Of a DNA stretch of 64,000 nucleotides, positions 24,864 to 58,789 are shown in pieces. Position 1 is the first letter of the stretch. Each line of letters begins with the position of its first letter. The position numbers were made by a program, and so were the translations under genes. Under the pieces are notes generated by a model, which saw only the letters and a program-made list of their open reading frames with translations, made no database searches and was not told the DNA's origin. The stretch lies in assembly GCA_903813345.2 (NCBI GenBank), contig CAIIXF020000001.1, forward strand, positions 6,820,001 to 6,884,000, read 5' to 3'. The stretch is from Owenia fusiformis (taxonomy: Eukaryota).

Positions 24864-25272
24864 GGGGAGGCATCAAAAGTTCAATGTCGGATTGGAAACT
24901 AAATAAATATAGTTTTGACTCTGACCCCCCCCCCCCTCCCCCCAAAAACTAAATACCACGAAAGTTGATCGCTGACTTCCGGTTTGAGAATTTGAAAAAT
25001 TATTGCAGGATCTAGTTTTTGTTAATTCCTATCGTAATTTGTGACCCTTGACAACTATTGATAGAATAGAATCCTTTGGAATGATCTTGAAGAAGAAAGC
25101 ATCAGGTAAAATCTTTATTTTTAAACCATTTCAAGGCATTCTGAGTCAAAATTGCCAGAAATTTGAAATGTTGAAATTTGTCGGATAGCAAACTGAAATG
25201 GGTTTGAATCCCCTCCCCCCTAACTAGATTTATTTAGTTTTTTATCCGACAACGAATGTTTGATGCCTCCCC
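24864..25272. mobile_element. PIF/Harbinger-type MITE
   Basis: TIR GGGGAGGCATCAAA. TAA TSD on both sides. Confidence 0.8.
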
Positions 25273-25464
25273 TAATGGTACTTATTTACATGGTACTAAA
25301 ATTACCTGGGAATTTGGTGGCTACCTAATTTGGCAGACTTTGACAATTCAGTGGATCCATCAAATTAAAATGGCCACAAAACTCAGTAGAAGGACAGTGG
25401 CTACTATCCTCTGAATGTCAGGATATATGCAAGTCTGGTATCCAACGAAAATTGTTGTACTTAC

Positions 25465-28400
25465 TGTTCCTTTGACGGAGCTGACGAAATGGAACCCAAC
25501 AATCTGTGGGTAACGCTTCTTCAGTTTATCCATGGGGATCTCTGCTTTAGCCACCTAGGAGTAAACAATTACATCAGTCATTTGATCAATTAAATTCCCA
25601 AGACTGAGTAAAACAAGTAATCTTTTATTAATTTTAGAGATGTATGCACCACTGTATAATGATCTCTGAAATTCTGATATAGTGTTCTACAAGATGTAGC
25701 CCTTTTTTGCTTAAATATTTACACAAGAGAAGCTTTACTCTAGTATATCATGAGTATTCAATTGATTTTGTGAAATGATCCCATGAATTTTTGTTCCTTA
25801 TTTCTTTTTTTCAATTAATATCTCCTCAATACAAAGGTGAATATAAACTACATGTTACATTACTGAACAGCCCCTACTATCTTCAATAAAAGTAAATAAT
25901 AGGTAAATAAACAACAATTCATTGAAACAAGTGTTCAGTGCATATACCTGATCAATATGGGTTCCAACTATGAAGATTGGGGTGTCTGGGGCATGACTGG
26001 TGATGGAACTTAGCCAGAAATCTAGCCCAGCATGTTCATGGCCCAATCGTGTTGTCCACAGCAGCAAATATACAGCACGCTGTGACAAGAAAAACTGTAA
26101 CAAAATATTTATCAATTCATGAATGAATTAAAAACAATAAGCATCCAATCATTTGGCTGACATTTGTTAATAAAAATGTGATATTCATAAGGAATCAAAT
26201 TTAAAGATCAATGAATAAATCAATTTGGAACAAATGGGACTTTCATTTATATGCCATTTTTGTATAATGTTGTCTATATTGGGAAAAGACAAGTAATTTG
26301 TAGCCAACACAGTGATAGAACTGACACAAGCTATGATATTCTACCATATTGACATGAATTCATGATATTATATGGAAAAAATCAAATAATTCAAGACTTT
26401 TTGGAAAAGCCTCGTACAAAATAAATCCTGAAGGCATAAAGCTCAAAGACAATGTATGAAATGAAAGTCTATACCAACCTGATGTGTATTATAATAGATG
26501 GTTTGGCCCGCAAAGTCCCACACACTAAATGTCACTCCAAGACCATCATCATACATGACAGTCCAATTTTGAATATCTATCCCATCTGTGATTTCTTCAC
26601 CCTTTGTCTCCACTGTCTTGTTCTGGCTGCTCATTAAAGCTTTTAGCAAACTGCAAATATCACAATTTTATGTTAATACTGAAGAGTTCCTTAATTGTTG
26701 AAAGGGCTCATTTTATAAAAATACCCCAAAAAATTGTACTCGCCTGCAATCGCCTCCAAGGAATCTAGAAAACAAGAAACTTAACAATGCGTATTTCAGA
26801 GAACAAGGCTGAAAATATGGGAACATGGATCAAAGCAATAATGAGAGCATGGACCAAGGTATTAATGGCCCTAATGTGTACTTGGAATGTACAGATGAGG
26901 CAATTGATCAAGACACTAATGAGAACTTGGATCAAAGCAATAATGAGAGCATGGACCAAGGTATTAATGGCCCTAATGTGTACTTGGAATGTACAGATGA
27001 GGCAATTGATCAAGACACTAATGAGACCATGGATCAAAGCAATAATGAGAGCATGGACCAAGGTATTAATGCCGCTAATGTGTACTTGGAATGTACAGAT
27101 GAGGCAATTGATCAAGACACTAATGAGAACTTGGATGAAAGCAATAATGAGAGCATGGACCAAGGTATTAATGGCGCTAATGTGTACTTGGAATGTACAG
27201 ATGAGGCAATTGATCAAGACACTAATGAGAACTTGGATCAAAGCAATAATGAGAGCATGGACCAAGGTATTAATGGCGCTAATGTGTACTTGGAATGTAC
27301 AGATGAGGCAATAACGCAGATGCGAGTAGGTAGTTACCAGATTCACCACCAGGTGGCTCGTTCGGGTCAGATAGCATGGCGGGTATAGGAGAAAGTTCCC
27401 TTAAACTTAAATCACATCTGTTTTAATGATTCAATTTTCATATAACCCTTATGTATCTAATAGTTATGCTAACTGAAATATGTCCAGTAAAAGAAAATGT
27501 TATCTTTCCAATACAAGAAAAGATATTTCACTTTTTTTGATTTTGTATCATGGGGTCTAAGGGGAATCAACCCGAACAAGAAGTCACATTTTCAAAAAAA
27601 ATTAAATTTTCAAAGTTGATAAACAATTTTCGAAACCATATTTCTAGATGTACTTTTACATGCAGATTTCAAATATGACATCACTTTGACTGAATTTTGA
27701 ATATTTAATGACGTAAATCAAGATTATTTCTACTCGCACCTAGTCTATTGATCAAGACACTAATGAGAACTTGGATGAAAGCAATAATGAGAGCATGGAC
27801 CAAGGTATTAATGGCCCTAATGTGTACTTGGAATGTACAGATGAGGCAATTGATCAAGACACTAATGAGAACTTGGATCAAAGCAATAATGAGAGCATGG
27901 ACCAAGGTATTAATGGCCCTAATGTGTACTTGGAATGTACAGATGAGGCAATCGATCAAGACACTAATGAGAACTTGGATGAAAGCAATAATGAGAGCAT
28001 GAACCAAGGTATTAATGGCCCTAATGTGTACTTGGAATGTACAGATGAGGCAATCGATCAAGACACTAATGAGAACTTGGGTCAAAGCAATAATGAGAGC
28101 ATGGACCAAGGTATTAATGGCCCTAATGTGTACTTGGAATGTACAGATGAGGCAATTGATCAAGACACTAATGAGAACTTGGATCAAAGCAATAATGAGA
28201 GCATGGACCAAGGTATTAATGGCCCTAATGTGTACTTGGAATGTACAGATGAGGCAATTGATCAAGACACTAATGAGAACTTGGATCAAAGCAATAATGA
28301 GAGCATGGACCAAGGTATTAATGGCCTAATGTGTACTTGGAATGTACAGATGAGGCAATTGATCAAGACACTAATGAGACCATGGATCAAAGCAATAATG

Positions 28401-30910
28401 AGAGCATGGACCAAGGTATTAATGCCGCTAATGTGTACTTGGAATGTACAGATGAGGCAATTGATCAAGACACTAATGAGAACTTGGATGAAAGCAATAA
28501 TGAGAGCATGGACCAAGGTATTAATGGCGCTAATGTGTACTTGGAATGTACAGATGAGGCAATTGATCAAGACACTAATGAGAACTTGGATCAAAGCAAT
28601 AATGAGAGCATGGACCAAGGTATTAATGGCGCTAATGTGTACTTGGAATGTTCAGATGAGGCAATAACGCAGATGCGAGTAGGTAGTTACCAGATTCACC
28701 ACCAGGTGGCTCGTTCGGGTCAGATAGCATGGCGGGTATAGGAGAAAGTTCCCTTAAACTTAAATCACATCTGTTTTAATGATTCAATTTTCATATAACC
28801 CTTATGTATCTAATAGTTATGCTAACTGAAATATGTCCAGTAAAAGAAAATGTTATCTTTCCAATACAAGAAAAGATATTTCACTTTTTTTGATTTTGTA
28901 TCATGGGGTCTATGGGGAATCAACCCGAACAAGAAGTCACATTTTCAAAAAAAATTAAATTTTCAAAGTTGATAAACAATTTTCGAAACCATATTTCTAG
29001 ATGTACTTTTACATGCAGATTTCAAATATGACATCACTTTGACTGAATTTTGAATATTTAATGACGTAAATCAAGATTATTTCTACTCGCACCTAGTCTA
29101 TTGATCAAGACACTAATGAGAACTTGGATGAAAGCAATAATGAGAGCATGGACCAAGGTATTAATGGCCCTAATGTGTACTTGGAATGTACAGATGAGGC
29201 AATTGATCAAGACACTAATGAGAACTTGGATCAAAGCAATAATGAGAGCATGGACCAAGGTATTAATGGCCCTAATGTGTACTTGGAATGTACAGATGAG
29301 GCAATTGATCAAGACACTAATGAGAACTTGGATGAAAGCAATAATGAGAGCATGGACCAAGGTATTAATGGCACTAATGTGTACTTGGAATGTACAGATG
29401 AGGCAATTGATCAAGACACTAATGAGAACTTGGATCAAAGCAATAATGAGAGCATGGACCAAGGTATTAATGGCCCTAATGTGTACTTGGAATGTACAGA
29501 TGAAGCAATCGATCAAGACACTAATGAGAACTTGGATCAAAGCAATAATGAGAGCATGGACCAAGGTATTAATGGCCCTAATGTGTACTTGGAATGTACA
29601 GATGAGGCAATTGATCAAGACACTAATGAGAACTTGGATGAAAGCAATAATGAGAGCATGGACCAAGGTATTAATGGCCCTAATGTGTACTTGGAATGTA
29701 CAGATGAGGCAATTGATCAAGACACTAATGAGAACTTGGATGAAAGCAATAATGAGAGCATGGACCAAGGTATTAATGGCGCTAATGTGTACTTGGAATG
29801 TACAGATGAGGCAATTGATCAAGACACTAATGAGAACTTGGATCAAAGCAATAATGAGAGCATGGACCAAGGTATTAATGGCCCTAATGTGTACTTGGAA
29901 TGTACAGATGAGGCAATTGATCAAGACACTAATGAGAACTTGGATCAAAGCAATAATGAGAGCATGGATCAAGGTATTAATGGCCCTAATGTGTACTTGG
30001 AATGTACAGATGAGGCAATTGATCAAGACACTAATGAGAACTTGGATCAAAGCAATAATGAGAGCATGGACCAAGGTATTAATGGCACTAATGTGTACTT
30101 GGAATGTACAGACGAGGCAATTGATCAAGACACTAATGAGAACTTGGATCAGGGAAAATATGAGAACATTGATTAAGGCATTAATGAGATCTTGGATTTT
30201 TTATGAACAATGGCCACCATTGCAAAATTCAGCATCAGCAATTGAACAAAATCCATCCACTGATATTTGAGTTATCAAAGATTACCTCTACTTGAGAGAA
30301 ATGTTCAAAATAGCCTCTCAATTCAAAATGGCCCCATTTAAAAAAATTTAATCTTTGATAACTCAAATACTAGTTGACGGATTTGATTCAAATTCTATAC
30401 AGTCGATATGTAATTAGACATGCGCAGAGCTCTATTTAGTGATATTTTCATTTCAAATATGGCGGCCAATCCGATGTCTGGCGACCCTTACAAAGAATCT
30501 AGGCAGTGTGCATTTTTACCTCCTGTGAAATAACAAGTGGAATTAAGTAGTTGTTTTGTGTTTTACTATCATTCTGCATCGTAATTCTATGTGATGTGGT
30601 GTTAAAATGTCAGCAGAAATAAATATCCATACGATAATCCTGGCTCAAATTTTCATCTACTCTAGTTTGCACCACAAATGTGAACTTTGAGACACAAATG
30701 AGAGTAAAAGCAAGGGTATCGCACTCACATCGCAAAGGATGGCAAAGAGACAGTTTCGAAAAACTAGATGCACTGATACTTTAAAAGCTCAACCATCACT
30801 GGATACACAAGTGTTCATAATGAAATAACAATATGAACAGATATGAAAAGTTCTCACCTTGTTTTCCCAGCTCCCCCAAGGCCCACGAGCATGAGCTTAG
30901 TACGTCTGCA
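25465..30910 (-). other. Roc (Ras of complex proteins) GTPase domain exons
   Basis: [19 protein letters not shown] (G1), TDGIDI (G2), [28 protein letters not shown] (G3), IVGTHID (G4), FVSS (G5). Confidence 0.93.
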
Positions 30911-33900
30911 CTCAGTGGATCCTTTAATGAGGCGTTTCATGTATGCATTAGTTGGTCCAGTCCCATGGCTGATCACTTCATGAGGAGGTGTTTTCAGTGA
31001 AGGACAGTGTGACAGAAAGCAGGCATCTGACAATTAAATACACCAAAATTCAAATACTCTGTAAATTATTGGAACAGAAAAATCCAAAACTGCTGGGAAC
31101 TGTATATAAGTCTTTTGCTCCAGTTACACAAAACAATAACTACATGTAAAAATCAAATATAGAATAAATTACCCAATATTACAAGTACAAATAACCCAAG
31201 CAGATTCATTCTAAATGCCTTTATTACTACAGTGTATATGTTATGCATAAGTTGTGCACAATGTACTTACCCAGACTGAGGTTTCCGAGCTCAGGGGGTA
31301 GGCTCTCAAACAATGGGTTATTTTGTAGTAACAGCTTCTTAAGGTTTGTCAGTCTCTCCACACTTGCAGGCAAATGTCGTATAGTAGTGTGTGTCAACTC
31401 TAGAAACTCCAGTTTCTTCAAAGAACATATCACCTCTGGGAATCCTCCAGATGCTGCATCTATAAAATATATCAATGGTGTAATACTTGAGTTTCAATTA
31501 TTTCTTATTTAGAACTGGATCATCAACACTGCAGTATTGACATGGCTTTTAAAAGTATTTGTAGAAATACTAGAGTACTTCAATATTTCTGTCAAACTAA
31601 AGATCTTCTCATCTAGTGGTGTAACTAAATCTATGCTTTATACCTAAAAGGTGCATTAGCAAGCCACAAGTAGAAAAAATATAACCTTTTTTAGTTTCAT
31701 ACAGTAAACAATAATTGACCTGATAATCAAAAATGATTTATTCTAGGGCAGGTTAATCCGAAATTCAAACACATCAACCCCCCCCCCCCTGGCTACTGGC
31801 CTGTTTGATTATTAAAATGAACAGACCCTTCATACTGCAACCCAGACGGGGAATGGTCCAAAATAGATCAGCATTCAGATTCGCTAATTCTCTCCTGTCC
31901 AGCATTTTGTTGCTATCGATGTCATATTTATCAAACAGTTCATCAATTGTTGACTGTGGTAGCAATCTCTGTATGAACTGGATACCACTCATGTTAGGAT
32001 CTTCGAGGAACTTCTCTTTGGGGATTTTGACGTCTTCATACAGACCCTTTGTCTCATACCACGGTATACCTTCAAGTGTAAATACTCTCAAATTAAATAA
32101 GGTATTTTGAGAAGTCAAAATACTGACCACTTTATAAAAATCCAATTCACTATGAGAAAAGTGTGCAAATGGCCATTGTTCCTACTCAAATTAATCATGC
32201 CCAAAGCAAGAACCTTGTTATATTAACTGTACTGTCATCCTCCATCAGCATGGTCACCATGTGTGTGGTTGAGGAGTAAAAAATAGTGCTTCCAAAAGAG
32301 TATTTTATTCCTATCAATACACAAATTACTTTTGCAGTTTCTTCAGTCTTAGGTTTGGAAACAATATCAACGATATTTTTGAATCTTTTTGAAGTTTATA
32401 TAGTGTTTTCAATTTGAAAAAAAACTACACAAACCTCCAATCTTCAACATGATTAGATTCTGAGCCAAAGCTAGCTCTGGGGGTAGAGAAGACACCATAG
32501 TACCCTCAAGTCTGAGCTTTGTAAGGTTTACAACACAAAGTGACTGGGGTACACATCTTAATGGACTTTGAGCCACTTTCACTTGCTGTATTGCAGGACT
32601 AAATAAATGATCTGGTAGTGTCTCTATGTACGTTTTTGCAATCTCCAGTATCTTGATTCCAAGCTTCCTTGTATGTTCCTCAGAAAAACATGTACCATTA
32701 AACCTCACTGAAAGGTCTGAGAGTTTTGGACATCTTGAGAAATCAGGAATTGTCCATTCTCCATCAATGCGACGATCTTCTGCCAAGTCAAGCCGCAATG
32801 ACACCAAATTGGTAAACAGGCTCAGATCAAGTAGTGTTGAAGGATCTGGTATTTTGATAGTGAGATTATGTGGCATTGATTTATCAGGGATTGCTTCTAA
32901 GTCAATCACACTGATGCCAACATGGCCACCCTTCTCATTTTCATATTTCTCAGAGACATGAATCTTAGTTTGACACATGGGTACATCCACTTTACTAAGT
33001 ATTGGTTTCCACTTGTGTTTCTTGCCTCTGTTGGTGGAGTCATAGAAGTAACTTGACTTAAGGTAGAAGAGCAGGAAACGTGTCATTAGGGTTTCCACAA
33101 CAGCCTGATCAACTCCACAACCATCCTGTAACCCTAGTATACCTTCAAAATTCGGTAACCTCAGCTAAAACGTAAAAGAAACATGGAGTCAATGCATTGA
33201 GGTAAATAAAGATCAATGTTTACTTCAAACATTATTTTCGTTTCGATGTACTAGAAACCTTGCAAAATGACTGGGATGTAAGCAAAATGGGTAATGGCAT
33301 TGTAGGATCCACCGCCTTTTTTGGATAAACAGAAAAGCATGAGATACATGTAAAGAGAGGCTCAGATAAATCAAAATGGATGATGGGTTGGTTAAAATAA
33401 GTTGAATGTTAAAGACAAAAATGACAGAAACAGTTGATATGATTGAAACATACAGTATGGTACACATATGGCATAATTTGACATTATATTCAGGAAAAAT
33501 CAATACACAGTTTCTTTCAAGACAGATGAATTACTTACCTTTGTCATTAGAGCAATGTCAAGCCTTATCAAACGGTTGTATTCATGATACACCAGGGTCT
33601 TGTCTGGTAGGCCACCTTCTATTGGAGTCCCCTTTTGGTAGAGTATATGAGCTGAAAAAGGACTACAATTTATTTTCATGTTTTTTTGTGCCACAATGTC
33701 ACCAAGCTTAATTGAAGGTAAACTGAGAATTCAACAATAGGATTGTTTATTTCCTGTTGGTGTCTACTCGGCCATTTTGGATCTATCACAATGAGATAAT
33801 GCATATATTATAGCATTATTAAAATGAATGGTTAACGAGAACAAACAATCAGTTATAAGAACGAGAAAGTGATTTTGTACTTACACTGCCTGTAGAGTAC

Positions 33901-36900
33901 TCCTTCAGGGGTCCTATTCTTAAAGATCGCATCTGAAGACTCTTCCAGTGAACATATTCTGTGTAACAAGATGTTTCCTGCATCGTAGATCTTGTCAATA
34001 GATGGCAGTGTCATATCAGATATATGTATTGAGCTTGGCAGAGGAAAATACATCTTAAAGTTGGACTTTGTTGTGGCTTCTTTGTAATGTTCTGAGGGGG
34101 CCCCAATGTAACGTGAGTGCACTGAAATCATAATATATTATATTAAATATGGTAGTCCTTTTGATTTAATAAATAACACATTTTATTTTGGTCTGAAGCC
34201 AAGGGGTGTCGGGGGTTTGAACTGCCAAGGATTCTTTCAAAACCATGCAGTTTTTCACCATTTTGAGCACTTTTCATGTTATTAATAATGGGCCAGATTT
34301 TCTAAAAGTGAACCCTCTTGGCAAAAGATGGCTATAGGCCTGTACTCTTAAGGTGGTAGTCAAAATAAATATCTAAAATAAATGTCTTAGCCCAGGCAGG
34401 AGATTCTTGAGAATGAAAAATGTAAGAAAATCTTGAAATAATACCAAACATCGATCCAGATGTACCTTTTACAGTGCATACCTTAGACAAACAAACGTAT
34501 ACAGTACATGGATTAAAAGCTAAGTATGCATTTTATTTTATGAATAAAGCAATGTATGCATTCGAGATTGTGCCAAAATATTGCCTTTACTTATATGTAT
34601 TTTGTGTTAAAAACCGGTGATCACCTGTTACAGAGTAAGGCCAATGAACACATGTAGAGTAATTCTGGGCATAGCTTCGACTTGTGATCAATGCATCCAG
34701 CAGTTTCTTGTAGGCATCCAGGAAGAGATGGCCTGTTTGTGTAGCATGCGACAGATTTTCCCTTGTTCTTTCCTGCAAACATGAGATAGGTTAATCTGAA
34801 AATACTGCATTATACGCTGTATATTTATATCATTTTATGATCAAGATCCTAAGCTACAGTGAAGAGAAAGAGCATGGTGTAGAGAAAGAGCATGGTGTTT
34901 GATCTGAATATGGGCAAGCATAAAACATTGACAAGTAGGCCTATATTGGAATGAGTTTATACAAAATTGGTGAATTTGGTGCTGAACTTGTATAAAAATC
35001 TATATTCTTTTTGAAAACCTGGAAAATTTGAAAAATCTGAAGCTCAGTTACTAAAGTTGATAATGGAGATATTTTCTTGCACCACCTAAATAAAGTGCTT
35101 CACCTTTATATGTATTCAATAATTCTAGCATCATTTTCTCCACAATAATTCGGAATAATTTGCCATCATACTTACAATCATACTTTGTGGAGCTTTAATT
35201 GCTTTCAGGGCATCTAAAATAGCTGCAATGCTACTCGTCTCATTTTGTGAATTATTGGATAATTTACTTGGAGCCTTGCTCTTGGTTTTTGCAACCTTTT
35301 TTGTAGCCAAACGAGGGTTTGAAGACTGCACAGATATGGCATCATTGATATCCTTTGCAAGCTCTCTTGCTTCAGCAGGGTTGGATGTTAACAAGACTTG
35401 ACAGGTTCTTTCCACCCACAGGGCTAGCAAGTCTATTTTCTGCGCTGTCCATGACTTGAAATTAAATTAATAAAACCATCAGTTGATTTGAAAATGCATT
35501 TTTAAATTCCACTTTGTAAAAGCCATTACTTGTAGTTAATCCATAAAAATGTTTGGAAAAAGTGTAATGCTATAATTGTGCATTAATTGGTTTTATACTC
35601 CATATATTTTGTATATATTTTTGTTGCTTGTGTAGTTTCGTTGTATTTTAGTTTTTTATATTGTAATTGTACACTACAGCTTAAAGTGCATCTCTAATGA
35701 GCAATATGGTATTGTTATGTGTATATAGAGTACTACATATACATATATGGTTTTTATTGTACCAAGGTTTATAACCTGTCACAAAACACCTCATAATTAT
35801 TTTTCACATTTTTACCTTTACTTGATTTTCGCAAGTCAAATGTATTTGTTTTTCAATAAGTTTCTTCTCCAGTGCTAAATCAGGACATAATTCAGACACA
35901 TCTGGAAAAGATTAACATTTAAATTCAATGCATACATGAAGCACATGTACTAGTCTCTATTGCAAACTACCCTAAACTATAATTTTCTAAAACATTATGT
36001 GCTAGGCCCCTATAGGTTATACCATGGGCTTTCAAGAGATATCAGAATTTTGAAAAAATGACCAAAAAAAATTTTAAAAGGATAAGAAAATGTAACAAAC
36101 AACAATGTTTGGGATGACAAGGTGGGGACCAGAAAACATTAAAATAAGGACATTAGTAGTCCATGGTTTGGTTTGACATTTTCTAGTATTTCCCTTTATC
36201 AAATCTCAACAACCAAGACTAATGCAGTATATTATAGTGTTATTACTGATTGAAGCCCATATTCACAATCAAGTTCAGTTATAAAAATAAATTACTTCTC
36301 TCTCGAATTTTTGCAAGTCTCTTCTCAGTTGCTGAGGGTGTCATGCAAGCTATGGCAAGTTCATGCCACCCTGGGGTCAAGACATTCTCCTGGGACAGCT
36401 TCTGCTTAAAGCTAACGACATTCATGTCTTTGCCAACATCTTCAAAACTTCCCTGTCTATTTTCTATGTTTAATATAGGAAGCATCAACCACTCATCCTC
36501 CCTGCAAAACAAACCAGTAGTTGATTATTCTAATTGTAATGAATTGGATATTTACATTTTCAATTGTGTTAGTATATATATATGATAACCTCTACAAACT
36601 GAACTTGAGATTTGGGATGGAGGACACATAAGTACATGTACTACTTGCTTAATTATAAAAGTTTTCATTATCCTTTGCTACAACTTCAAGTCAAACAAGA
36701 GACACAGTGCTAATTAACACTTTACCCAGCATACCCATACTCTGATCATATGTTGGTATTAATCTGCTCTTGCATCTTTCAAATTAAATGAATATGTGTT
36801 TTCCTGAAATTTTTATGACATTTAAGATACTTACCTCAAACAAACTGTTCAAATGCTCCACATTCATAGAATACTGAATTTATTGTATTTATAAAATATT

Positions 36901-45900: not shown

Positions 45901-48900
45901 GCAGTGAAAAAAAAAGTTCATTGAGTTACTAACATATTTCATATTGATATTACAGGGTGTCCAAAAAAACAAATAAAGTAGACCCCACACATTTAGTTAT
46001 GAAATGTGCAAAATGTGTACCTTTGGTGAATGGGCAGCTGGATCTGAAAGTTTGATGTTGAGCATTCCATTTAGATTGTCCAACTCTGAATTAGCATCAT
46101 GATCATCTAAATTATCACTAGAGCCAATCAATTGATAGACAACATCACTGCCAGTAAATGCAGTTCCATCCAGATAAATAGAAATGTTGTGATTCTCACT
46201 GAAATAAAAGGTTTCAATATTAATATCGGGACTATTTATTGGGTACAGTATCAACAAGAGTTTCATTTTTCATCAATATTAACAAGAGGAATGATCCGGA
46301 TAGGAAACGTTTTGGGTACCTTCTTAGAAATGTTTTGTGAATTAGAAAACACTGCATTTCTACTCTGTTTGTTTCTATTAAAAAATCTAATCATATAATA
46401 ATAGGTTACCTTGTCAAGAAAGGTACACTCAGTTGAGCTCTCTGTATTAAAATGCTGGCTTTATTGTTGAGGTAAGGGTCAAGTGGTACATCTAGCATCA
46501 TAGAGTGAATATTAAATTCATCTTCATCTTCTGAATCAGTGGACCCAAAATCAGAAATGGGAAATTCCCTTGTACTTTCTGTGATTATGTCACTGCTGCA
46601 GTATCCAGGTCTCAAGTAAGATTTGATTTTCTGCAACGAATAATGTAAAACATTATTTGAGTTTCAGTATATATATTATCTAAGAAAAAATTAACTTAAA
46701 GTAATTTTGTATAAATAATTGTCAACTATAACCAGACTACTTCACTTATTATCCTAAAGATTTTGCCTAGCTTTTATCAAGATGAAAAAAGCAACTGCGT
46801 AATCTCAAGTAAATTATACTATCGCATAACACAAATTCAAGTTTATAAGTTTGAAGGATAACTATGCATACCCAAAAATATGATGCACAGCTGGTACAAA
46901 TACCACAATCAAGGCAACCTATGATCTCCCCAGTGCAGCCACAACGTTGGGTATACTCTTGTAATATGCCATCATATGGACAATCCATTCCTGCTATCAT
47001 ACAATGACCACACAATGTACAGATGGACCTGAAGCTAGGATTTCCATTGAAAACCTGCCAGTTGTGGTTGTAACATATAGAGTGATTATCTGAAAAACAT
47101 TTAATACTCATAGCAACCATTTGTCTAAAATGTCAACAAATCAAAATCATGCATGGAATGTGAGTACCTGCATATTTTAGCTTTTACAAGTAATTAATTA
47201 AATACAATGTTCATGTTACTGACATCAGTCTTCCAGTTAAAAGAGGCGTTTACTAGGAACTTTCGGTCATAAGGAGATAAACATATTTCCCTGAGGATAA
47301 ACCCTGTACACTGTATGTAACCTACCATATATTTTCAATTGCATTTTTCTCTTCTCACATTTTGAAAGTGTATACATAAACAAATTAGTTCACTTAGGGA
47401 GGAGTGAGAATGGCATATTTCTGTGGGTTTCAGCCCCTATAGATAGCTGAACAGATACAAAAAATTCATGGCACTCCCTCAATACAATAAATAGTCCTGC
47501 ATGTTATCTAATGCTAGAATCTGAATAGTTATTTGAACACTCTGTTATATACTATTCAGGTACTCCCCATATCAGAAATGGGGTAGAGACATGAATCCAT
47601 AATGAGGTATATAAAGAATTAGTATATCATATAAATCAGAATTATACTGTATAAAAACCTCTTTTTAATATATATATCTTTTATTGACTCTTAGAATGTC
47701 ATGGTATGACATATTAGTCAGTACAAAAATAAAACCTCACTACACTACACTACATTATACTACACTACACTAGACTACACTACTATTATACAAATATAGT
47801 ACAGTATATACAAAAACATGTTATTAACATGTATTGAACATATGAGATATACAGTAAAACCTACATATAATGAACACCTATGGAGCCACAAAAAGTATTC
47901 ACTGTAGAAGGTGTTCACTACAGAAAGGGGATTTAATACAGGAGTCAATGTAAAAAGTGCCTTAAAGTGGTGTTCACTAAACAAAGGTGTTCACAGGAGG
48001 GAAGTGTTCAGTAAGACAGGTTTTACTGTATTGAAATAAAACATCTATTTTCTCATGACTTACGAGGCAATGTAGACGGCTGAGTGATCATAGCGACAAA
48101 TGGACCATAGTGTGTTTGGATCACATGATCTATGACATCAGCATAGAGGTAGAATACACTGCAGACAAACTTGTAAACTTTCTCTGAGCCTGATACAAGG
48201 GCACTTTCCCTGTTGTAACTCACTGTGCTACTCTGTAGTGTCATTTTACTGCAGCCTGAGTAAGAAAAAACAATACTTGTACAATATGATAAAATACAAA
48301 AATTCACTTAAATACAATAAACTAAAACATGATAACTTATAAAGTAAAGTATTGAAATAAAAGGTAACAGCTCATTTATATAAAATAGCTGCTTTATTGC
48401 AATTTAAGTGACCATACAATATCCTTCTGTTCACCACTCCATAAGGGCCCCCATGAGGATAAATATCACTACAGTTAAACGAATAATCAAGAGCTTGATA
48501 AATGGCTTATTCGAAAATTAGTTTTTATGACTCAATCCATAAGGCTGTATTTTGATTAGTTGAAAGCTGAAACTACCAATTTAACAGGGATGAAATATTC
48601 AGAAGCAAAGCAATCATACCATCATTTGTGACAGTCTTTATCAGAACCTCAGCACCACCCTGGTGTATCAACATTCCCTCCTTGGCCAGGACAACAAACT
48701 TGGCAAACCTTGAGCAAACAGCAGCGATTTGTTGTATGAGACCTTGTGATATGTCACAATTGAAGTTATACACCTTGGTCACAATCTCCCTTGGGACCTC
48801 AGCATCCGGAGTTGCAGGCATCTAAAAGTAAAGAATTTTTTCTTAAAAGTTATGAGAGTTTTTTTAGGTTGTACCTGGTATTTACATTTAGGTGTCAGTT

Positions 48901-51900
48901 CAATGGTGACCATTGATGTGATCCCTTGCTGGGAGGAATATGTCCATTGGTTAGATAAAGTGATATTATGATTGCTTGATAACATTGGCCTGATTGAAGG
49001 TCCCTGCATGAAAGGAGTTCAAGATTAACATAAGATCAAACTTCCTGCCATCCCATTTATGAGAAAAATACATTTTGTCAACATGTAATGGCCCGAGAAG
49101 TGAAAACAAAAGTGTTGCTCTTACCAAAGGTGCTTCAGGTTTTTCAATACTGGGTACATGTACAAAGACATATTTCTCTTCATCAAGTTGTGTCCTCAGA
49201 CATGGCAGACGAACCAGCAAACCTTGATGTTCCAGTAATGGTATCAATTTCTCTGACACCAACTGTACCTGAAATGAGAGGAATATGTTGAACATGCAGA
49301 AGTTAGCTACTTTTTCATGATCAAAAAGGGTTTGTCTCCCAGTGACTGAGGTGTCATTGTAGGACAAAGACTGAATAGATAACTTGCTTCAAATAAATGA
49401 ACAGACTGTGAAAAAGGAGGACTTCTCAAGTAAGATTGAAGCATTCAAACCTCCCATAAAACGCTTATGAATCAATAATCTCTTAAAGTGCCCGATAAAC
49501 TATAAAATGCGCATGCGTCCAGGTGTTGATAAACTATAAATAGCGAAAATCCAGGGTTTGTCACCACAAGGTAAGCCAGGACGTGTTGAGAGAACAGCTA
49601 GTGTTGATATTGAATTTACATGTAGCCAGATAAGTTTCCTTATTGAAATTACATATGGTTATTAGCAATACTTTGTAGGTGCTAAATAATAAAATATTTA
49701 GAGTATATATGAGAGAAATTGGTCATTTCGAACCTGTTGAAAAGTTTGTGGCTCTCGGCTACACCGGGGAATTTACTTCCATGAGTACACACATAAATGT
49801 GGGGTTCCCCAAGAAGTACGCGACAAGGTGACCTGGCATCAAATGTGCGACTAAATGCTACTATCGAGAAGATAAAATAACGAATACGACAATAAGTTAT
49901 TGCATGTGACAATTCCGAGCCTTCATCTCACTGAAGTATTTTGAAGTGAAAATAGGATTTTTGTTTTGATACATGTACATGGATTCAGATGAACGTAACT
50001 TTATTCTGACAACTAATCAAAACTGAACAAAATTAATTGTACGTAACAGACAATTTAATGTTTTACAATGTTTTGATTGGCTAAACGAATGAAACCAACA
50101 AATTATGACATGTAAAATGACAATTTTGAAATGTAAAATTTAAAAGTGACAAACACAACCTCCCTATCCACTCTTTGGGAGCCCTAGTAAATTAGTAATA
50201 TGTACATGCAGCAGTGGTAGTGTACAGCTTATTATCACACTACGCTTTGTATTCTAAAGCCTGTTGTTTGTAATAACACTGTTCACTCAACGTATGTTTT
50301 GTGTGTGGGCAGTCAACGATAATCATTGTTTTATCCCGGTTATATGACCTCGGCAATTATAACAGAACCGTACTAAACGAAAAAACGCAAATAAGAGAAA
50401 GCTTTCACACACATATAAAAAATGAACTAGTCTAATACGCCAGTATAAACTCTGTGCTATACGTAGCCGGGTCAGGCGCACACTTTAAGGTAATGGCATT
50501 TAATCAAATTGAAGTACAGTAAATGATTTTAAATGTAAAGTATTAAGACTCACAAACTCTTCTACTCCTTGATCCTTTGGATCATTTAATGTATCAATAG
50601 CCTTGACTAACTGCTCCACACTCCATACAGGAGTCCCAGGAGGTAAACAAGGAGTTTGCAGTCTCTTACTGGGGGTAGTACAACTATTTTCTGATGTGAT
50701 CAATTTCAAGATCTTGCTGTACCAAGTGAAGTCTCTCAGAACCACAGGTTGTTCTAGGTTTCGAAAATACAAAACATCACCCTGAAATAGACAAACAAAA
50801 GGCCTGTAGAGAGAAGATTTGAAAAATTTTACTTTTTCTGAGCTGTCAGGGCACCATTTGGCTTAAAATCTTCTTTGACATACCTATTTTCTTAAAATGT
50901 ATGGATAAACTATCAATTTCAGCATTAAGAAGTGTAAATTCAGTTCAAAGCTTCTATAAAGTGAGTCCCACTTATAGATTTTTAAGATCCACCATGGTTC
51001 AAGGGAAATATTAGCTGAAATAATGTTCATTCAGGGGGTTTCTTTGGAAATAATAAAAATATTTGATAGTCTTGATGAAATATCCAAAATTAAATATATT
51101 TTGACACTGGTCCATGATCGTTGAAATGTAAATCATCCTTTCAAAAACAAGTGTTTCATCTACACTCTGGGTTTATCTTTTGACCTAGGCTTCACAGAAT
51201 ATTAAGAACACGGTCAATCAAAATCCAGGTACCGTATCAAAATTTATTTACTTTTATGTTTCAAAAGTACCGGGCAGCTACTTTTGGGGTCTTTGAGATC
51301 TTACCAGCATCAAAACTGTATTTAAATTTCGATATAGAGCCCCTATGCAGCATTGCATTGTATTATACTATACATCTGTATTGTATTGTATTGCATTGCA
51401 TTGTAAATTGTATTATATTATATACAACTGTATTGTTTTTCATTTAATTGTATTGTATTTCATCACTTACTTCATCATGTAACACTTGCAAAGTGTTGTC
51501 TAAAATGGGATACTTCTGCATACAGAAACTGGTAGCATCTTCTATTTCAATAGATAGTAGATTTGCAATATCCAAAAATTTTGCATTGCTTTCATCATCA
51601 ATATCATCCATCATGTCTGAAGAATCCTCACCAGAGTAGAGGTGTCGAACTCCTGGAGATATGGCTTTTAACTGTGAGCCTAATGCAGCCAAGAGTAAAT
51701 CTTGGTCCTGGAACAGATTGTGTGTAACGAGGCTGTCAGTTACATGCAAGGCTAGAACAAGATCAAAATGTCACCACGTGTCATTTGTTACAGATGTCAT
51801 GTTACAGGCAAAGTACAACGACCACTGTACACCAAGAACCATCCACAAAAAAGTCCAAAAAGAGACCAATTACAATATTGTATTATAATACAATCAAGTG

Positions 51901-54900
51901 GTGACATAATAATAATCGGGAAGAATCCTAGAAAGTATTTTGATCATTTGTTGCTTATTAAAATTCTTTCACAAAAATCTCTCACCTTATACAAATGTGT
52001 ATATATTGGCCTATCAACTGGGTTTTCCATCTTCATGCTGTTACACAGTTGCTTAGCAACTGCCTCAAGTAGATACAGCATACCCAGCTGTTTCTCATCT
52101 TGTAAAGTCATGTGCATTTTGGATTTTAACCTTAAAATGAAATAAAACCTCGAGATAAAGGCCAATCATTTTATAATATACTATAATTGAAGCATGGGCA
52201 AAAATCCATTGCATTATCACTGCGCTAGAATCAACTGGTGATGAATATTTGTAACAACTCCGAGTCAGAATCGTATTACTGTTTGTGTTTGTCTAAATAG
52301 ATGGGTCTGCAGGATATGTGCACCCTGAACAGTACAATAGTTGGGAAAAGGGGCCAACAATTACTTTTGAAAAAATAATTCAACAATACCCTTCAGCTCC
52401 AAATGTTGCTTGTTCCTGTAGTTCCCCTACACAGTCCTGTACTATTGTGTCTAGTTGGTCAATACTGGCTGTTGCACTTGTGCCAATGACAAGGAACCTA
52501 CATCCAGTGTAGTGGGAACCATCTGATTTGGAATACCCATGCTAAAATACAGTAAAATGTACATGTATATACTACCCATCCTCTCAAAAATGTTCGTTAT
52601 TAGATCATTTTAAAATATTTTAAAAATAAAATACCATATTTTTTTCCTAATGAACAGTATCAGTTAGTTTACATTTGTGAAAAATACCTTGCTTATGAAA
52701 AAGAGCACAGTTTGCATGATGTGTCTTTTTGAGATCATGGAGTCCTGGGTTAAGTCGACAGGAATCACTACGAGACTCACAATCCTTGGTAACACATTGT
52801 CAAATCCATCCTGCAATAGATTAATAAAACATAAATTCTTTATGTTGTAAAATGAGTGGCATATGTAGATGTACACTACATGCAGTTTTGTAATTCTCAT
52901 TGTTAAATCAGTGCTGTCATATGGAGAGAGAATCTTATTTTGCCTCTCCTAAGGTCAAAGGTTATTACAATTTTTAGTTACCATAGTAAAATTAAGAATA
53001 GAAAAATTAACAAGTTATCAACTTTGGTGCAAGAAAATCTTCATCTTATACGTATGCATGTGCTACTCTGCAACACGCTGTTGTTTCAATTACTTTTGAT
53101 TTAAATCAAATGACATAAAATAACATTTGTGTATTTGATGTAGTACTTCACGATACCTTAAATGGGTTGAAGATCATAAACTTCCATTGCTTATCGTTAA
53201 TCTCTCTTTTACCAGTTTGAAAGAGGTGAGACCTTTCCCCAACCTCATCTGGTACGTTAGTATTATCACACAAAGCTTTCATCACTTCTGTCACTTGTGC
53301 ACTTTCTGTCTCATTCTTAGGTACAACCACAATTGGAAACGTAAATTCCTCGTCTGAAAAAAATATCATGATAAACACACATGTACCTACTGCATTTTAA
53401 AATCAAAACTTTATCAAACTTTATCAAACCAGGGTACAAGCATGGTGAATGAAAAGGTTAAACATTAAATGAACCCAAATGCTCAAAATACAGTTTTTAA
53501 AATCTTTATAGAGCTTCTTTGAAAAAAATTTAATGCCTTGTTTGGGTCAAAAATAAGGCTTATTATTTGTATTATTATAATTATATTTTTAGGCCAAAAT
53601 CTTTTCTTAAATCTTTTCCTTAAAAAGTTCACTGATATCATATTTGAATCAAAGTACTTTGTACCTGAGTCTATTTGCTGAACTTTAATTTTCTCATTAA
53701 TCGTAGCCCTCCCTTTAGGTTTAAATCTCTTTTCTCGTTCTGTTGCCGTATTAGCATATGTGATAGTTGTGAAGTTAAAGACGGACATTGTGGTTTCATC
53801 ATGAGAGAACAATGCTGCGCTTTTCCCTGTGATGTTTGGGCAGGCATCAAGTCTGACCTGGAAAAAAACAAGTATACCATACATATACTTTGAAATATAA
53901 AAAATCGAAGTGGTATAATGAGGTTATATAATGGTTGATTCCATATATCGTGTTCATACTCAAGTGAGTAAATGATATTTTCATGAGTGACTGAAGGGAA
54001 TGAGTGAATGTATCATATACTCACAAGAGTATAACGATATACAGAATCAACCACTATATGATCTTATTATATCACCCTAATCTTTAATCAATAAAAGGTT
54101 AATCTAAATTCAGCAGTTGCATATTAAGTCGAAGAGTTGTATACACTGCCCAGGAGTTGTATACGCTGCCCAGGAGTTGTATATCGTTCTCAAGAGTTTG
54201 TATACGATGAGTGTTGGTTTTATATTGCAGTTACACAATGCTATTATATAATCATATAAAGCACTTAGGTCGGGATAAGTATATTTATATCTAAATGATT
54301 AAACATACTGATATCTAAAGAAAAAACAATTATAATATAGACTTTATTTCAATGTATCACTTGATTTACATAGTATGTTTTACACAGTAAGTGAATAAAA
54401 GACTAAAATAAAATACTGTTATGAGAAACAAATGTTTGTTGTGTTGTCATATGGTCAAAAATAATTCATAACATTTTATTTACACTTAATGTCATTGAAG
54501 TGTCTATACATTTTATTTAAACATTCTTTCAGGAAAAAGAACACATTTCGATCAGGCCCTTTTAAATGCAAACTTTCATAGGCACATCTTGCTAAAAATG
54601 AGTAAAAGGGTCATCTCAACCTTCATTAGGTAAATGTGCTGGATACCATGTTATCTTACTTTAATAATGTCATCTTTGTCCCTCCCCTCCTGCATTAGCC
54701 TATGTAGCCAATATATACCATCATCTGTGATGTTTGGGCAGTTCATTATTAACACAGTCTCTAGCTTGAATCGCTCCTAGAAGATACGAGGAAGAAAAAG
54801 AACAATATTAGCCAATAATTAAACAAGTTTGAATCAATCAAAAGTGATAAGGTATATGATAACAGCCATGTAAGTCTACATCAAAATCATGATTTTTTAT

Positions 54901-57900
54901 ATTATTTTTGATATGTTTGTTGATTTTTCTGGGCCCACCATGTACATGTATATCTTAATTCTCTGTAATTAAAATTCGTAAATATTTGATGAAACAAAAG
55001 AATAAACAAAGAAACAAACCTTCATTTGGTAGAACTTGTAGAGACAAAGGTCTGTGAGATAGGGGTTTGTCACAAAATGAAGGTGAGAGACAATGTCTGG
55101 ATTAGCAACTTTCTTCTTAACTCCTTCATCATCATATTCCTCTTCCTCGTCATCATCACCTTCATATTCGCTATCCAGCTCTCTCTTACGCTCATCGAAC
55201 TCTTTCTTCGCTTCTTTTTTCTAAGGTGGCACAAGAATTCAAAAATAATAGAGGCAATGATTTTCTTAATATGGTCAAATGAAGGCTCTAGGTGACATTG
55301 CGTTTAAGAGTTCCATTTCTTTGTCAGGAAAAAGGGAAAATGAATATACAGTATTTATAAGCTTGCATTTGGATATTGATTTGCTTTGAACATGCAGCAT
55401 ACAAGTAGTTGTCTGAAACTGTTCAGATGTTTTAACTGTTATACGGACATTGTCCTACAAGGTACAGACTTTCTGGAAGTGCAAATGGGGAAACAGTACA
55501 TAAAAGAGCGATTCACTCTTACTGAATAAAAGAGAGATTACATGGAGTGGTGAATTAAGCTACAGTACATGTACCTGTGTGTTATTGGGAGCAACCTCTC
55601 CGAGACCTATTCTTTGTATAACATCCTAAAATGTACAAAAAGAAAAAGGGGTGTTCTAAAGGAAAATACTTATTACTTTAAATTGGACATATAAAGGAGC
55701 TAAAGCATACAAAATGTGGCTTTTTGGATTTTGGATGTTAAAATTGCCAATTTCTTAAAAAATCCCAAGAATTTAGATAGACAGATGCTCACAAAATCCC
55801 ATAGCCTCAGCACCTAGCCTCACAAATAAATATACAATTTTCTTTATTCAAATTTCTTTAAATCTCATAGTTTGTACATCTACTTCACATACAGGCTGGC
55901 TAAAGTGAACATGAAATGGTGGGTCGGGGAATTTACAAAAATGTACTGAATTATCAGTCACCAATACTTAAGAATGTATATAAAAGTGTCTATTTTATTT
56001 GAAACATTTATAAAAACCGAATCCAAAGAAAAAAACAAGTGAGTGATAGCTATAGCTCACCATGTGAGCTGACAATACAGCAACTTTGACACTTATCGAG
56101 ATTACTGAGCAATGTAGAAATAATAGACAGCAGTGCAACATAAGAAAAAGTTCAAAGCTTCAAGCTACAGGGGTCAGATGAATTTTTAGCCATAGGATTT
56201 GGAAATGAACATTGTAATTGATCCAGATTCTTCATTCAATTTTGAAAGCTATGTTATTAAATATTTTGTTTGAAAGCTTGTTTGAAAGTTTATTCACTAA
56301 TGGTCTATATCCAAAAGAAAATAAATAGAACCAGCTTATATTTTTATTCTGAAACCATAGAGATGGTGTGATTTTCAAGAAATTTCGGAAAAAAAATCGC
56401 AAGTTCCCACCATCCTAACTCAGCCACTTTACCCCGATCACCTCGATTTTGGCACCAATAATGATCTATTATCTGTAGCTAATAGGTACAGTTATAAAAA
56501 AATAGTTTTTTTTGGTAGAGAAGTACCGGAAAAAATCCAGAGGGGGGTCATCCGATCCCCCCCTGTAGACATTAGGGTTAAACTATGAAAAAATTTTAGG
56601 AGCATATTTTAACATGTTCTATTACAACTTGTTTAGGGATATACTCACCTCCCAGCCATCTAAGGCGTAACATCCATTCTCTCTGAGTCGTATTCTTGAT
56701 GCAAAGTCATTGGGATACAATGAGTCATCCAGGATGATACCATCTAAAACAGGTACACGTAATTAAACAAGGCATTAACATGTCACCACTTAGTTGAAGC
56801 AAGATAAAAAAGACCTTTTTGACCTTGAGGAGGTCATTAAAGGTCAAATCTATTTTGACCTTCAGAATGTCATTGAAGGCCAAATCTATAGTGAGATTTG
56901 AAATGTTGAGAACTTGTAGATGATTTTGAAAAAAAATTGGTCAATTTGCATGTGCTAAATACGTGCCCATTAACTATGCGGTGATGTCAGAGAAAATGAC
57001 CACATAGAAAGTCATCCGTATTTTGACAACGAATTCTGACTGGCTCAGTGAGATAAACTGAAAGAGTGAAGATCTCTTCTAAGAAGTGAAGTTGAATGAA
57101 TGCAAAGGGTGTCTTTTTTCTAAAAAGCAATAACAAAATTTCAAAGTTGTTTTCTTGAAATTAACTAAGGTTACTAATCTATCCAGTGAGCAAAAATGAA
57201 AAAGATTCTGCTGATCATGGGAATCAAAATATTATCTAATGAAATAATTATGTAATATACTGTTACATTTAAGCATAAAATTACAATATTGAATACACTA
57301 TCATTAATTAATTCTTCGGCTTTCCAGGGAGGCCAGGGAGTATAACGTATTCTCTCTAATAAATTCACAGTGGGTCTCCCAAATTCTCCTGTAGGAACAG
57401 TAAGAGCTGTCTCAAATGACAAAATTCCCAGGGATTTTTCTTAAGGTAAATATATGGACTTAGATTTCATAATTACAATAGTATTATTTTGTAACTACAT
57501 GTACCTCTCTTGTAGAGTAGCCAGTCTGCTTCATAACTCTTGACATCAACAGAGTCCAACAATTCCCTGTCTTTTTCTAACTCTGTTTCTGAAATTAACA
57601 TAGTACATGTATATGCCAAATTAAGGTGTACCTTACTTAAGTGGACATATTCAATGGTATTGATAGTCAAGTTAAAAGGGATATGTCCCCAATATTTGGA
57701 GATATCTAACAAAATGAACAATGCTCCCAATTTTAGGGTATTGGAGCATTGCTGTGGACCCCATTTCTCAAACATGAAAATCAAGGTTTTCTCAAGTTTC
57801 AGTTTTACCTAAAAATCCGAATTGATCATTTACATGCATACAAGGCCAGGTGACATTATGGACCAGCTACGATTGCTAGATGAAAAGATTCCTTCAAACA

Positions 57901-58789
57901 TAACATAGTACTATGCATGACTGACGAAACAGCCCTTAGCTAGTCCTGCATGAAGAAAATTTGAACATACCTGCTTCATTTGACGCAGTTGGGGCATTTG
58001 GTGCAAAGGGAAGCTTAAGAGCAGCCCTTATGGCTTGATTGAATACATCACTAACATTGTGACCTGTTAAAGCTGAGCATTCCATGTAGCCATAAGCACC
58101 AGTCAGATTTACACACAATTCAAAGTCCTTTTTTGAAATAAATGGTTTGGGAGATTCACCATCTTCTACTTTTTTGTCCCTCGCGTCACAACATGTTCCA
58201 ACAATTAGAATCGGGACACCATGGCAATGGTGTCGTAGTTCAGGAATCCATTTATCTTTGATGCTATTCAACCCTTCCAAACTCTGCACAGATGTGGTTA
58301 CTACGAAGACATCTGTATTAGGATAGGATAGGGGGCGCAACCTGTCATAGTCCTCTTGTCCAGCGGTGTCCCATAATCCTAAGCTGATCTAAGCAAACAA
58401 AATATTTCTTATATCATTATATTATTATATCAGATATTATATCAGATAAAACTTGCTGTTATGCATAGTCCAGGTTAAAACATGGGCTTTCAATTACAGT
58501 TGAAAGCCCATGGTTAAAATAACAATTCATGTGGATCTATTACATTGACTTGGCTGCTTATAACATTTTAGACTTCAAATCAAGAACTTACATTGTTACC
58601 AGCAACTATTACATTAGCACTGTAGTTGTCAAATACTGTAGGAATATAATCAGTGGGGAATGCATTGGTCGTGTAGGTTATTAACAGCGCTGTTTTCCCA
58701 GATGAATGATCTCCAACCACCACTAGTTTTATATTCTTTTGTGGCATTTTACCCTTTGATGCCCTGGCAGTTTGTTTTGTCCTTGCCAT
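25465..58789 (-). CDS. Giant Roco-like multidomain protein (>=~2830 aa): H3-tail-like peptide, Rac-like GTPase, LRR_CC, degenerate Roc-COR, Cys-rich motif, SPRY-like, LRR/EF-hand, Roc; 3' end unresolved
   Basis: 44 hand-assembled GT-AG exons with compatible phases and no internal stop: 58789-58592, 58388-57971, 57588-57505, 56743-56649, 55625-55575, 55220-55020, 54776-54660, 53857-53665, 53353-53157, 52810-52688, 52541-52390, 52130-51986, 51707-51471, 50781-50554, 49268-49125, 48821-48620, 48255-48064, 47089-46872, 46630-46410, 46198-46021, 45881-45787, 45447-45305, 45091-44971, 44825-44111, 43894-43775, 43050-43004, 42557-42467, 39122-38908, 38556-38409, 37480-37313, 37146-36920, 36501-36296, 35901-35816, 35454-35176, 34772-34625, 34121-33885, 33651-33539, 33164-32435, 32069-31827, 31459-31271, 31026-30858, 26650-26479, 26094-25948, 25554-25465. 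Individual boundaries may be off. Confidence 0.85.
26825..30150. repeat. Intronic 102-bp tandem repeat (~24 units) in three blocks, with a duplicated ~437-bp spacer
   Basis: Unit GATCAAAGCAATAATGAGAGCATGGACCAAGG...GAGAACTTG with period 102. Spacers at ~27312-27747 and ~28665-29100 are 1353 bp apart. Confidence 0.97.
30950..32860 (-). other. LRR region with embedded EF-hand, preceding Roc
   Basis: [81 protein letters not shown]. Confidence 0.85.
37662..38403. mobile_element. Transib-like MITE, 742 bp, with ~300-bp TIRs
   Basis: CACCCTATGC...GCATAGGGTG with 5-bp TSD CATAC (37657-37661 and 38404-38408). Confidence 0.85.
39282..40495 (-). mobile_element. 5'-truncated L1/Tx1-type LINE in an intron
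   Basis: FKFIW..G...[20 protein letters not shown] and [17 protein letters not shown] (zf-RVT-like), a frameshift near 39910, and a poly(A)-like tail at 39282-39299. Confidence 0.85.
40975..41834 (+). mobile_element. Satellite-carrying HINE-like element
   Basis: Subterminal IR ATCCCATCGAAC / GTTCGATGGGAT, ~136-150-bp tandem units and (GACG)n at 41765-41790. Confidence 0.75.
42200..42430 (-). mobile_element. Non-LTR retrotransposon C-terminal CCHC fragment
   Basis: [23 protein letters not shown], just downstream of an exon donor site. Confidence 0.65.
47852..48028. mobile_element. pogo/Tigger-like MITE
   Basis: TA-CAGTAAAACCT ... AGGTTTTACTG-TA. Confidence 0.75.
53924..54059. repeat. Imperfect palindromic repeat element
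   Basis: ATATAATGGTTGATTCCATATATCGT pairs with ACGATATACAGAATCAACCACTATAT, with inner ACTCA/TGAGT stems. Confidence 0.55.
57971..58735 (-). other. Rac/Rho-family GTPase domain (exons 1-2 of the giant gene)
   Basis: [85 protein letters not shown]. No CAAX. Confidence 0.95.

Follow-up and report, generated by a model that had tools for sequence, protein, structure and literature searches.

The subject of this analysis is a predicted giant gene in a 64,000-nucleotide (nt) window of the Owenia fusiformis genome (contig CAIIXF020000001.1), and all positions given below are those of the window. On the minus strand, a chain of predicted coding exons runs from an ATG at 58789 to a splice donor at 25465. 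We tentatively read this chain, giving it somewhat less than an even chance, as one large, lineage-restricted, multi-exon animal gene that extends at least to 25465; the giant Roco-like protein that it would encode is plausible and unproven. The N-terminus of this protein would be a histone-H3-tail-like leader joined to an atypical Rac/Cdc42-like G-domain. A long and probably fast-evolving middle would follow, in which a Cys-rich module and an acidic insert accompany one or two COR-like segments, and at the C-terminus an LRR region containing an EF-hand-like loop would precede a Roc G-domain whose nucleotide-binding motifs are predicted to be intact. The Rac-like and LRR-Roc ends lie 31 kb apart on one strand and are joined by continuous, phase-compatible exons.

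The original prediction had spliced 44 exons into one open frame of ~2830 amino acids (aa). When the model was rebuilt independently, the chain again comprised 44 exons, with 8454 nt (2818 aa), no in-frame stop and GT-AG at every junction. The frame had been described as running from a Rac-like domain to an LRR-Roc, and both domains were recovered with Pfam, PDB and blastp, whereas its end at 25465 turned out to be a donor and not a stop, so that 2818 aa is the minimum length of the product. The window is AT-rich (GC 0.30-0.38) and its coding pieces are animal-like, that is, short open frames split by introns. Within the model the exons are closely spaced and their phases match throughout; 8.4 kb of sequence is open, and two of the exons reach 715 and 730 nt. 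The chain score was 646 on the minus strand and 25-50 in three mononucleotide shuffles, and the score of 351 on the opposite strand stems from four exons of a tandem-repeat open reading frame (ORF). Splice sites above the 90th percentile of all GT/AG sites were found for 36 of the 44 donors and 33 of the 43 acceptors, partly by construction, because the chainer selects such sites.

Two junctions carry particular weight. Joining 30858 to 26650 across 4.2 kb rebuilds a canonical G-K-T-S-L-L P-loop/helix, and a COR-A-type signature is formed only across the predicted junction 51471/50781. Because splicing restores these motifs, we took both junctions as self-validating. The 44-exon chain stands as a prediction of one large reading frame.

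Exons were chained with our own dynamic programming over phases, using generic donor and acceptor matrices and a coding score (codon log-odds) trained on 24 long ORFs from the minus strand. The raw chain contained 57 exons, and 13 low-scoring or repeat- or transposon-borne exons were taken out by hand: three 5′ and four 3′ exons with a near-zero coding score, two in a tandem repeat, two in a retroelement and two tiny ones beside the retroelement. Some of the retained exons are doubtful. Exon 38556-38347 overlaps one arm of a 259-nt inverted repeat and can be removed without a change of frame, a Cys-rich exon can take the place of exon 47303-47224, and exon 57388-57299 has a poor donor.

The Rac-like and LRR-Roc ends

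The first two coding exons are predicted to encode a Rho-family (Rac/Cdc42-like) Ras-fold G-domain with a Rho insert. Among the stop-to-stop ORFs this GTPase appears as two pieces (58819-58580 and 58388-57936), and an in-frame stop lies 11 codons upstream of the ATG. Both exons matched Pfam Ras (Table 1), and the best PDB match of exon 2 was Rac1 (3su8, E 3e-34), with Cdc42 and RhoA close behind. In an alignment with seven natural Rho proteins, the domain was 46-56% identical to them, switch I and switch II were unchanged, and the Rho insert was present and 3 residues shorter. The canonical Rho P-loop G-D-G-A-V-G-K-T and the T-K-x-D motif of these relatives were both absent from the aligned domain. 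Its P-loop reads G-D-H-S-S-G-K-T, with His at the first glycine after G-D, and its guanine motif reads T-C-C-D, in which Cys replaces the lysine. Because a substitution at that P-loop glycine goes with poor GTP hydrolysis in atypical Rho proteins, we expect the Rac-like domain to be a docking module rather than a cycling switch. The P-loop His and the guanine-motif Cys argue against an ordinary cycling Rac switch.

The leader in front of this domain (residues 1-20; 58730-58789, minus strand) copies the histone H3 tail and aligns to H3 residues 1-21. The leader is identical to H3 over M-A-R-T-K-Q-T-A-R, A stands in place of K9, and S10, K14, P16 and K18 have all retained their positions. When residues 1-22 were compared with PDB, the best 60 matches were all histone H3. 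The copy shares its exon with the beta1 strand of the Rac-like domain. Proteins starting with M-A-R-T-K are reported to be H3 N-terminal mimics (H3 N-terminal mimicry proteins, H3TMs) that PHD fingers read (PMC8166343). The M-A-R-T-K start is the feature in common, and removal of Met from the predicted protein would expose the A-R-T-K N-terminus that such fingers recognise. The present case differs from the H3TMs in that the likeness to H3 spans ~20 residues and sits on a GTPase.

At the other end of the chain, four LRR exons are followed by a P-loop exon and three further Roc exons, the Roc-type GTPase being split over the stop-to-stop ORFs 31033-30854, 26667-26443, 26127-25855 and 25554-25360. 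Pfam Roc gave 25.8 and 26.0 bits on two exons, to be read against a cut-off of 27 that holds for the whole domain, and our own Roc-COR profile, built from 8 and then 18 natural proteins, gave 121-127 bits on residues 2670-2817. In blastp, residues 2325-2818 matched natural LRR-Roc-COR proteins (P0131, E 5e-39; P0211, E 3e-37; P0196, E 3e-35), with 27-30% identity over 430-490 residues. Each of these alignments halts at the last residue of the model, where the natural proteins continue with COR-A and COR-B (Pfam). As judged from its motifs, the predicted C-terminal LRR-Roc has G1-G5 nucleotide-binding motifs that are all intact. An EF-hand-like calcium loop (D-x-D-x-N...E) was also seen in the LRR exon 32149-31827 (minus strand), where the Pfam EF-hand_6 match (E 0.014) is below the cut-off.

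The middle of the chain

A degenerate Roc-COR had originally been placed in the middle of the chain. In Pfam, none of the 40 exon ORFs of the middle showed a family above noise, and the 10 exons of the putative Roc-COR module had no match at E up to 10. The Roc part of the claim was not supported. The four exons at its position had no detectable similarity to Roc or Rac: the score of the Roc profile was equalled by 543 of 1000 shuffles, and Smith-Waterman z values were <2 in 6/6 comparisons. We also aligned residues 470-1030 with 18 Roc-COR segments using hhalign; the local score (20.5 vs 17.3±3.0 in shuffles) was not above the shuffles, and the result was rejected as evidence for Roc-COR.

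The COR part fared better, and a COR-like stretch in the middle of the chain is weakly supported. With the COR-A profile on residues 700-900, 5/1000 shuffles scored as well (p≈0.005), and with the COR-B profile on residues 860-1030, 33/1000 did so, both scores being below any curated threshold. None of 100 shuffles reached the sum of the Smith-Waterman scores against 18 natural COR segments, and one reached the maximum score. These alignments were anchored on the L-H-D-x-G...Y-F...V-V-L...W signature, and the COR-A and COR-B signals were collinear. A second COR-A-like motif further downstream was equalled by 4/1000 shuffles in a post hoc test, made after the match had been seen; four control windows gave p values of 0.17-0.65.

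The other exons of the middle can be described mainly by their motifs. In our own reading, the exons with C-P-N-I-T repeats resemble F-box-type LRRs, and the region at 43.8-45.9 kb looks SPRY-like, a reading of motifs that is backed by no tool; neither group had a Pfam match. An alternative Cys-rich exon matched no family in Pfam or the ESM Atlas, and a comparison of this exon and the COR-A-like exon with the ESM Atlas yielded no usable match. No Pfam family was matched by the linker exons between the Rac-like domain and the middle.

Table 1 Predicted exons, candidate modules and repeats along the minus-strand chain (window positions)
Feature	Position	Strand	Remarks
Coding exon 1	58592..58789	-	Start codon (context aacATGG), 20-residue H3-tail-like leader, Rac-like beta1, P-loop, switch I; Pfam Ras E 4.7e-11
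Coding exon 2	57971..58388	-	Rac-like switch II, T-C-C-D motif, shortened Rho insert, G5; Pfam Ras E 2.3e-23
Read-through of exon 2 into the intron	57936..57970	-	11 in-frame codons ending C-R-T-S, then stop at 57936
Five predicted linker exons	57588-57505, 57388-57299, 56743-56649, 55625-55575, 55220-55020 (span 55020..57588)	-	Chainer model
Two exons with C-P-N-I-T repeats	53665..54776	-	No Pfam match
Four exons at the position of the proposed degenerate Roc	51986..53353	-	~Residues 485-640; without P-loop
COR-like stretch	48620..51707	-	COR-A signature L-H-D-x-G ... Y-F ... V-V-L-x-x-x-x-W; COR-B-like part in exon 48821-48620
Alternative Cys-rich exon	46872..47089	-	~73 aa with 14 Cys/His; fits in phase in place of 47303-47224; C/H pattern like a zinc-binding module
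Five exons, SPRY-like by motif reading	43775..45881	-	Include a 238-aa exon with an acidic low-complexity insert
Retroelement remnant	39392..40499	-	Pfam zf-RVT E 1.1e-5; same strand as the predicted gene, within its longest intron
Exon with second COR-A-like motif	36296..36501	-	Model residues 1857-1880
LRR region, four exons	31271..33164	-	Pfam LRR_14 (E 7.9e-8) / LRR_8
Roc P-loop exon	30858..31026	-	G-x-G-G-A-G-K-T; splices in frame over the 4.2-kb intron to 26650
Three arrays of a 102-bp tandem repeat	26817..30186		4.9, 9.0 and 10.7 copies, 97% matches; outside the coding model
Three Roc exons	26650-26479, 26079-25948, 25554-25465	-	Switch I, D-F-A-G-Q, T-H-I-D, S-S-V-K-G G5; Pfam Roc E 1.4e-5 and 1.2e-5
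Read-through after the last donor	25360..25464	-	34 codons, hydrophobic end, stop at 25360

One gene or several

Several observations weigh against reading the whole chain as one gene. With regard to the model, several small exons are weak, and an exon chainer always returns some open path. At the Rac end, the spliced form has no CAAX box, and a C-x-x-S box appears in frame only when donor 57971 is read through; the estimated chance of finding a cysteine at the CAAX position is ~0.03. In addition, an in-frame ATG (57601) lies 13 nt upstream of acceptor 57588. In the middle, the 4.65-kb intron that bears the retroelement could hide a gene boundary, and the model splits here with a lower start penalty. 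The 3′ end of the model is open, at a gtaagt donor just past the Roc G5 motif, and no COR-like ORF after the intact Roc was found with the Roc-COR profile among the 2035 six-frame ORFs of the window. Finally, four large protein searches with the Rac exon and the LRR exon, two of them confined to proteins of up to 2000 aa, revealed neither an ortholog nor a protein with the same domain order.

The absence of a CAAX box, as originally claimed, holds for the spliced model and fails on read-through, where the frame runs on to C-R-T-S and a stop. One possible interpretation is that this short extension forms the CAAX-type C-terminus of a separate Rac-like protein or is what remains of such a protein. 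There would then be two genes at this end, a two-exon atypical Rac-like GTPase of 216 aa that may be prenylated and a large downstream gene starting at or near ATG 57601. The read-through cysteine is spaced from the last G-domain helix much as in natural Rac proteins, all of which end C-a-a-L, and among the 120 long proteins listed with the most similar Rho domain, none carries LRR or COR families; the upstream ATG would also suit such an arrangement. However, R-T suits the a-a positions of a CAAX box poorly, and the next coding-looking exon (57588) comes only 383 nt beyond donor 57971, leaving ~330 nt for a 3′ untranslated region (UTR), an intergenic spacer, a promoter and a 5′UTR. That stretch, and indeed the whole interval between donor 57971 and acceptor 57588, contains neither AATAAA nor ATTAAA. 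Donor 57971 scores 6.1 bits (100th percentile), among the strongest of 2385 GT sites, and the open frame upstream of acceptor 57588 looks non-coding. Furthermore, the Rac exons remained linked to the downstream exons when the start penalty was lowered to -6 and -3. We consider two genes at the Rac end to be somewhat less likely than one large gene, and a serious rival to it.

The weakest link of the chain is the 4.65-kb intron 43774-39123, which separates exons 43894-43775 and 39122-38908. If a boundary lies here, a gene of ~1580 aa (Rac-like, COR-like, Cys-rich and acidic/SPRY-like) would end near 43.6-44.1 kb, and a second gene of ~1240 aa would run from 39.1 kb to the LRR-Roc. This is the only long gap of the chain and it contains the retroelement remnant; lowering the cost of starts makes the chainer split here before anywhere else, and the open frame of exon 44825-44111 continues to a stop at 44078. 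On the other hand, the split models begin or end in 7-nt exons or in transposon sequence, and the phases agree across the gap. Exon 39122-38908 has a good tttcag acceptor and is coding-looking from its first codon, with no ATG before codon 27. Such a break in the middle is quite unlikely in our estimation.

At the 3′ end, the Roc G1-G5 motifs agree with the intact Roc that the original prediction had placed at the C-terminus, and no COR follows it in the window. The defining feature of the Roco family (LRRK2, LRRK1, DAPK1, MFHAS1) is a Roc-COR tandem, which functions by dimerisation (PMC6337361). Because no COR lies within 25 kb downstream of the intact Roc, this module lacks the tandem that defines the family, although COR exons may lie beyond the window. 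No credible further exon was found at 17100-25464, the best candidate scoring 10 vs 17-31 inside the gene. The stop at 25360, reached by reading through the last donor, is one possible 3′ end of the gene; AATAAA occurs ~125 and ~240 nt beyond it, which is not significant in AT-rich DNA. The last donor, a perfect gtaagt, suggests further exons, which could lie past two genes on the opposite strand.

These features of the 3′ end could also mean that the locus is decaying or chimeric, the LRR-Roc being a truncated, COR-less Roco duplicate and the chain perhaps not being expressed as modelled, or that there is a misassembly or a set of 3′ exons outside the window. Neither a stop nor a COR follows the Roc in the model, the downstream exon candidates are poor, a 3.4-kb minisatellite and transposon remnants occupy introns, and the non-LRR part of the largest exon has no relative among 1.84 billion representatives. 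A decaying locus would hardly be expected to keep 8.4 kb of exons open, with two exons of more than 700 nt, nor to leave the Roc G-motifs and the Rac switch regions all intact, and the consensus last donor points to more exons. We regard this explanation as decidedly improbable, and the single large gene remains the reading that we carry forward.

The repeats and neighbouring genes were also catalogued. The 102-bp arrays occupy the intron between the Roc P-loop and switch I and form a higher-order repeat of ~1.35 kb. All six frames of the 102-bp unit are open, the plus strand reading as a D/E/N/Q-rich 34-aa repeat; since all six are open, the plus-strand frames were rejected as a nested gene. 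The inverted repeat beside exon 38556-38347 (37662-37920 and 38145-38403) has 259-nt arms that are 94% complementary and 224 nt apart, resembling a foldback element or a miniature inverted-repeat transposable element. Another repeated element is present in at least three copies on both strands (1389-1702, 9534-9835, 41708-41954), with frames that contain R-T-D-G and S-V-R-P runs. The opposite-strand genes are two tandem UDP-glucuronosyl/glucosyltransferase genes on the plus strand (6636-8246 and 14624-16881). The first consists of a single open frame of 536 aa (UDPGT, E 6.5e-90), and the second comprises the open frames 14624-15319 and 15868-16881, being either intron-split or disrupted.

Relatives and implications

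Homologues with the same domain order, for which the original prediction had looked to protein searches, did not appear. The searches of longer proteins with the LRR exon and the Rac exon covered proteins up to 2000 aa. Within that range, the LRR exon (33164-32409) gave two weak bacterial Roco matches. Against 1.84 billion representatives the same exon gave 115 matches, all to its LRR part and with the best stretches starting at query residue 85 at the earliest, and its first ~85 residues had no relative there. The matches listed for the Rac exon, among both near-length and longer proteins, were generic Rho proteins at 56% identity or less. In line with the original prediction, a characterised protein with this architecture appeared neither in the protein searches nor in the paper listings and Roco review passages that were searched, and these described no Roco protein to which a Rho-family domain is added or in whose chain two modules derive from Roc-COR. 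One predicted protein of 2234 aa (P0218, from a ctenophore by its source name) has a duplicated LRR and a partial Roc followed by LRR-Roc-COR. No other protein hinted at tandem Roc modules within a single predicted chain, and P0218 may itself come from merged gene models.

Among known kinds, the C-terminal part comes closest to the group-1 Roco proteins and the N-terminal part to atypical Rho proteins of the RhoBTB type. With group-1 Roco proteins (LRR-Roc-COR; vertebrate MFHAS1, bacterial CtRoco) the chain shares an LRR followed by a Roc with G1-G5 (PMC6337361). It differs in that no COR follows the Roc in the window, that an EF-hand-like loop lies inside the LRR region, and that ~2300 additional N-terminal residues include a Rho-family domain, a combination that neither the paper listings nor the review passages searched (PMC6337361) describe.

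The RhoBTB type likewise has a Rho domain heading a multidomain chain, an altered P-loop and, as in the spliced form here, no prenylation box. Rho-plus-BTB proteins did occur among the long matches of the Rac exon (P0292, P0327 and P0336 carry PF00651). In contrast, none of the exons scanned with Pfam matched a BTB domain, the partners here are LRR-Roc and COR-like segments, and the chain is about four times longer. Miro, a mitochondrial Rho GTPase, has two G-domains flanking EF-hands and is tail-anchored. The chain resembles it in having more than one G-domain, the first being Rho-like, an EF-hand-like loop and, if the last donor is read through, a hydrophobic tail. Size, order and families differ, the second G-domain being a Roc with LRR and the EF-hand match lying below threshold, and a reading of the chain as Miro-like, with a Rho domain, an EF-hand, a second GTPase and a tail anchor, was rejected on grounds of size and families.

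If the single large gene is real, its product would probably serve as a Roco-type scaffold for signalling in the cytosol, with the LRR-Roc end as the true GTP-controlled switch. The Rac-like end, because its switches are Rac-like, its P-loop carries His, its guanine motif carries Cys and its CAAX box is spliced out, would instead offer Rac partners a tethered docking surface that cycles slowly or not at all, and would not be a membrane-anchored switch. The COR-like segments would probably supply contacts within or between chains. As for its origin, a large gene is likely to have captured an upstream Rac-like gene and a COR-less LRR-Roc fragment.

A more elaborate picture can be drawn, which we judge improbable. 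Here the H3-tail copy and a Rac-like domain that does not cycle would share one chain with two degenerate modules derived from Roc-COR, a ligand-binding SPRY-like part and a live, COR-less LRR-Roc. The live Roc would pair with the orphan COR-like modules of the same chain, an intramolecular pseudo-dimer thus replacing the Roco homodimer, and the H3-like tip would link the protein to chromatin readers or to nuclear import. The self-contained GTPase cascade put forward in the original prediction is, like the pseudo-dimer, speculative.

Should the transcript prove real, an intact Roc without its own COR beside orphan COR-like segments would be a test case for the role of COR toward Roc, and the same chain could show whether a pseudo-dimer forms within one polypeptide. 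A Rac-like domain that keeps its effector switches intact, has an altered P-loop and lacks a lipid anchor would represent a new type of tethered Rho module, and the hard-wiring of such a module to a Roco-type scaffold would also be new. A GTPase that carries a copy of the H3 tail would, for a protein of cytoplasmic type, display histone mimicry of unusual length.

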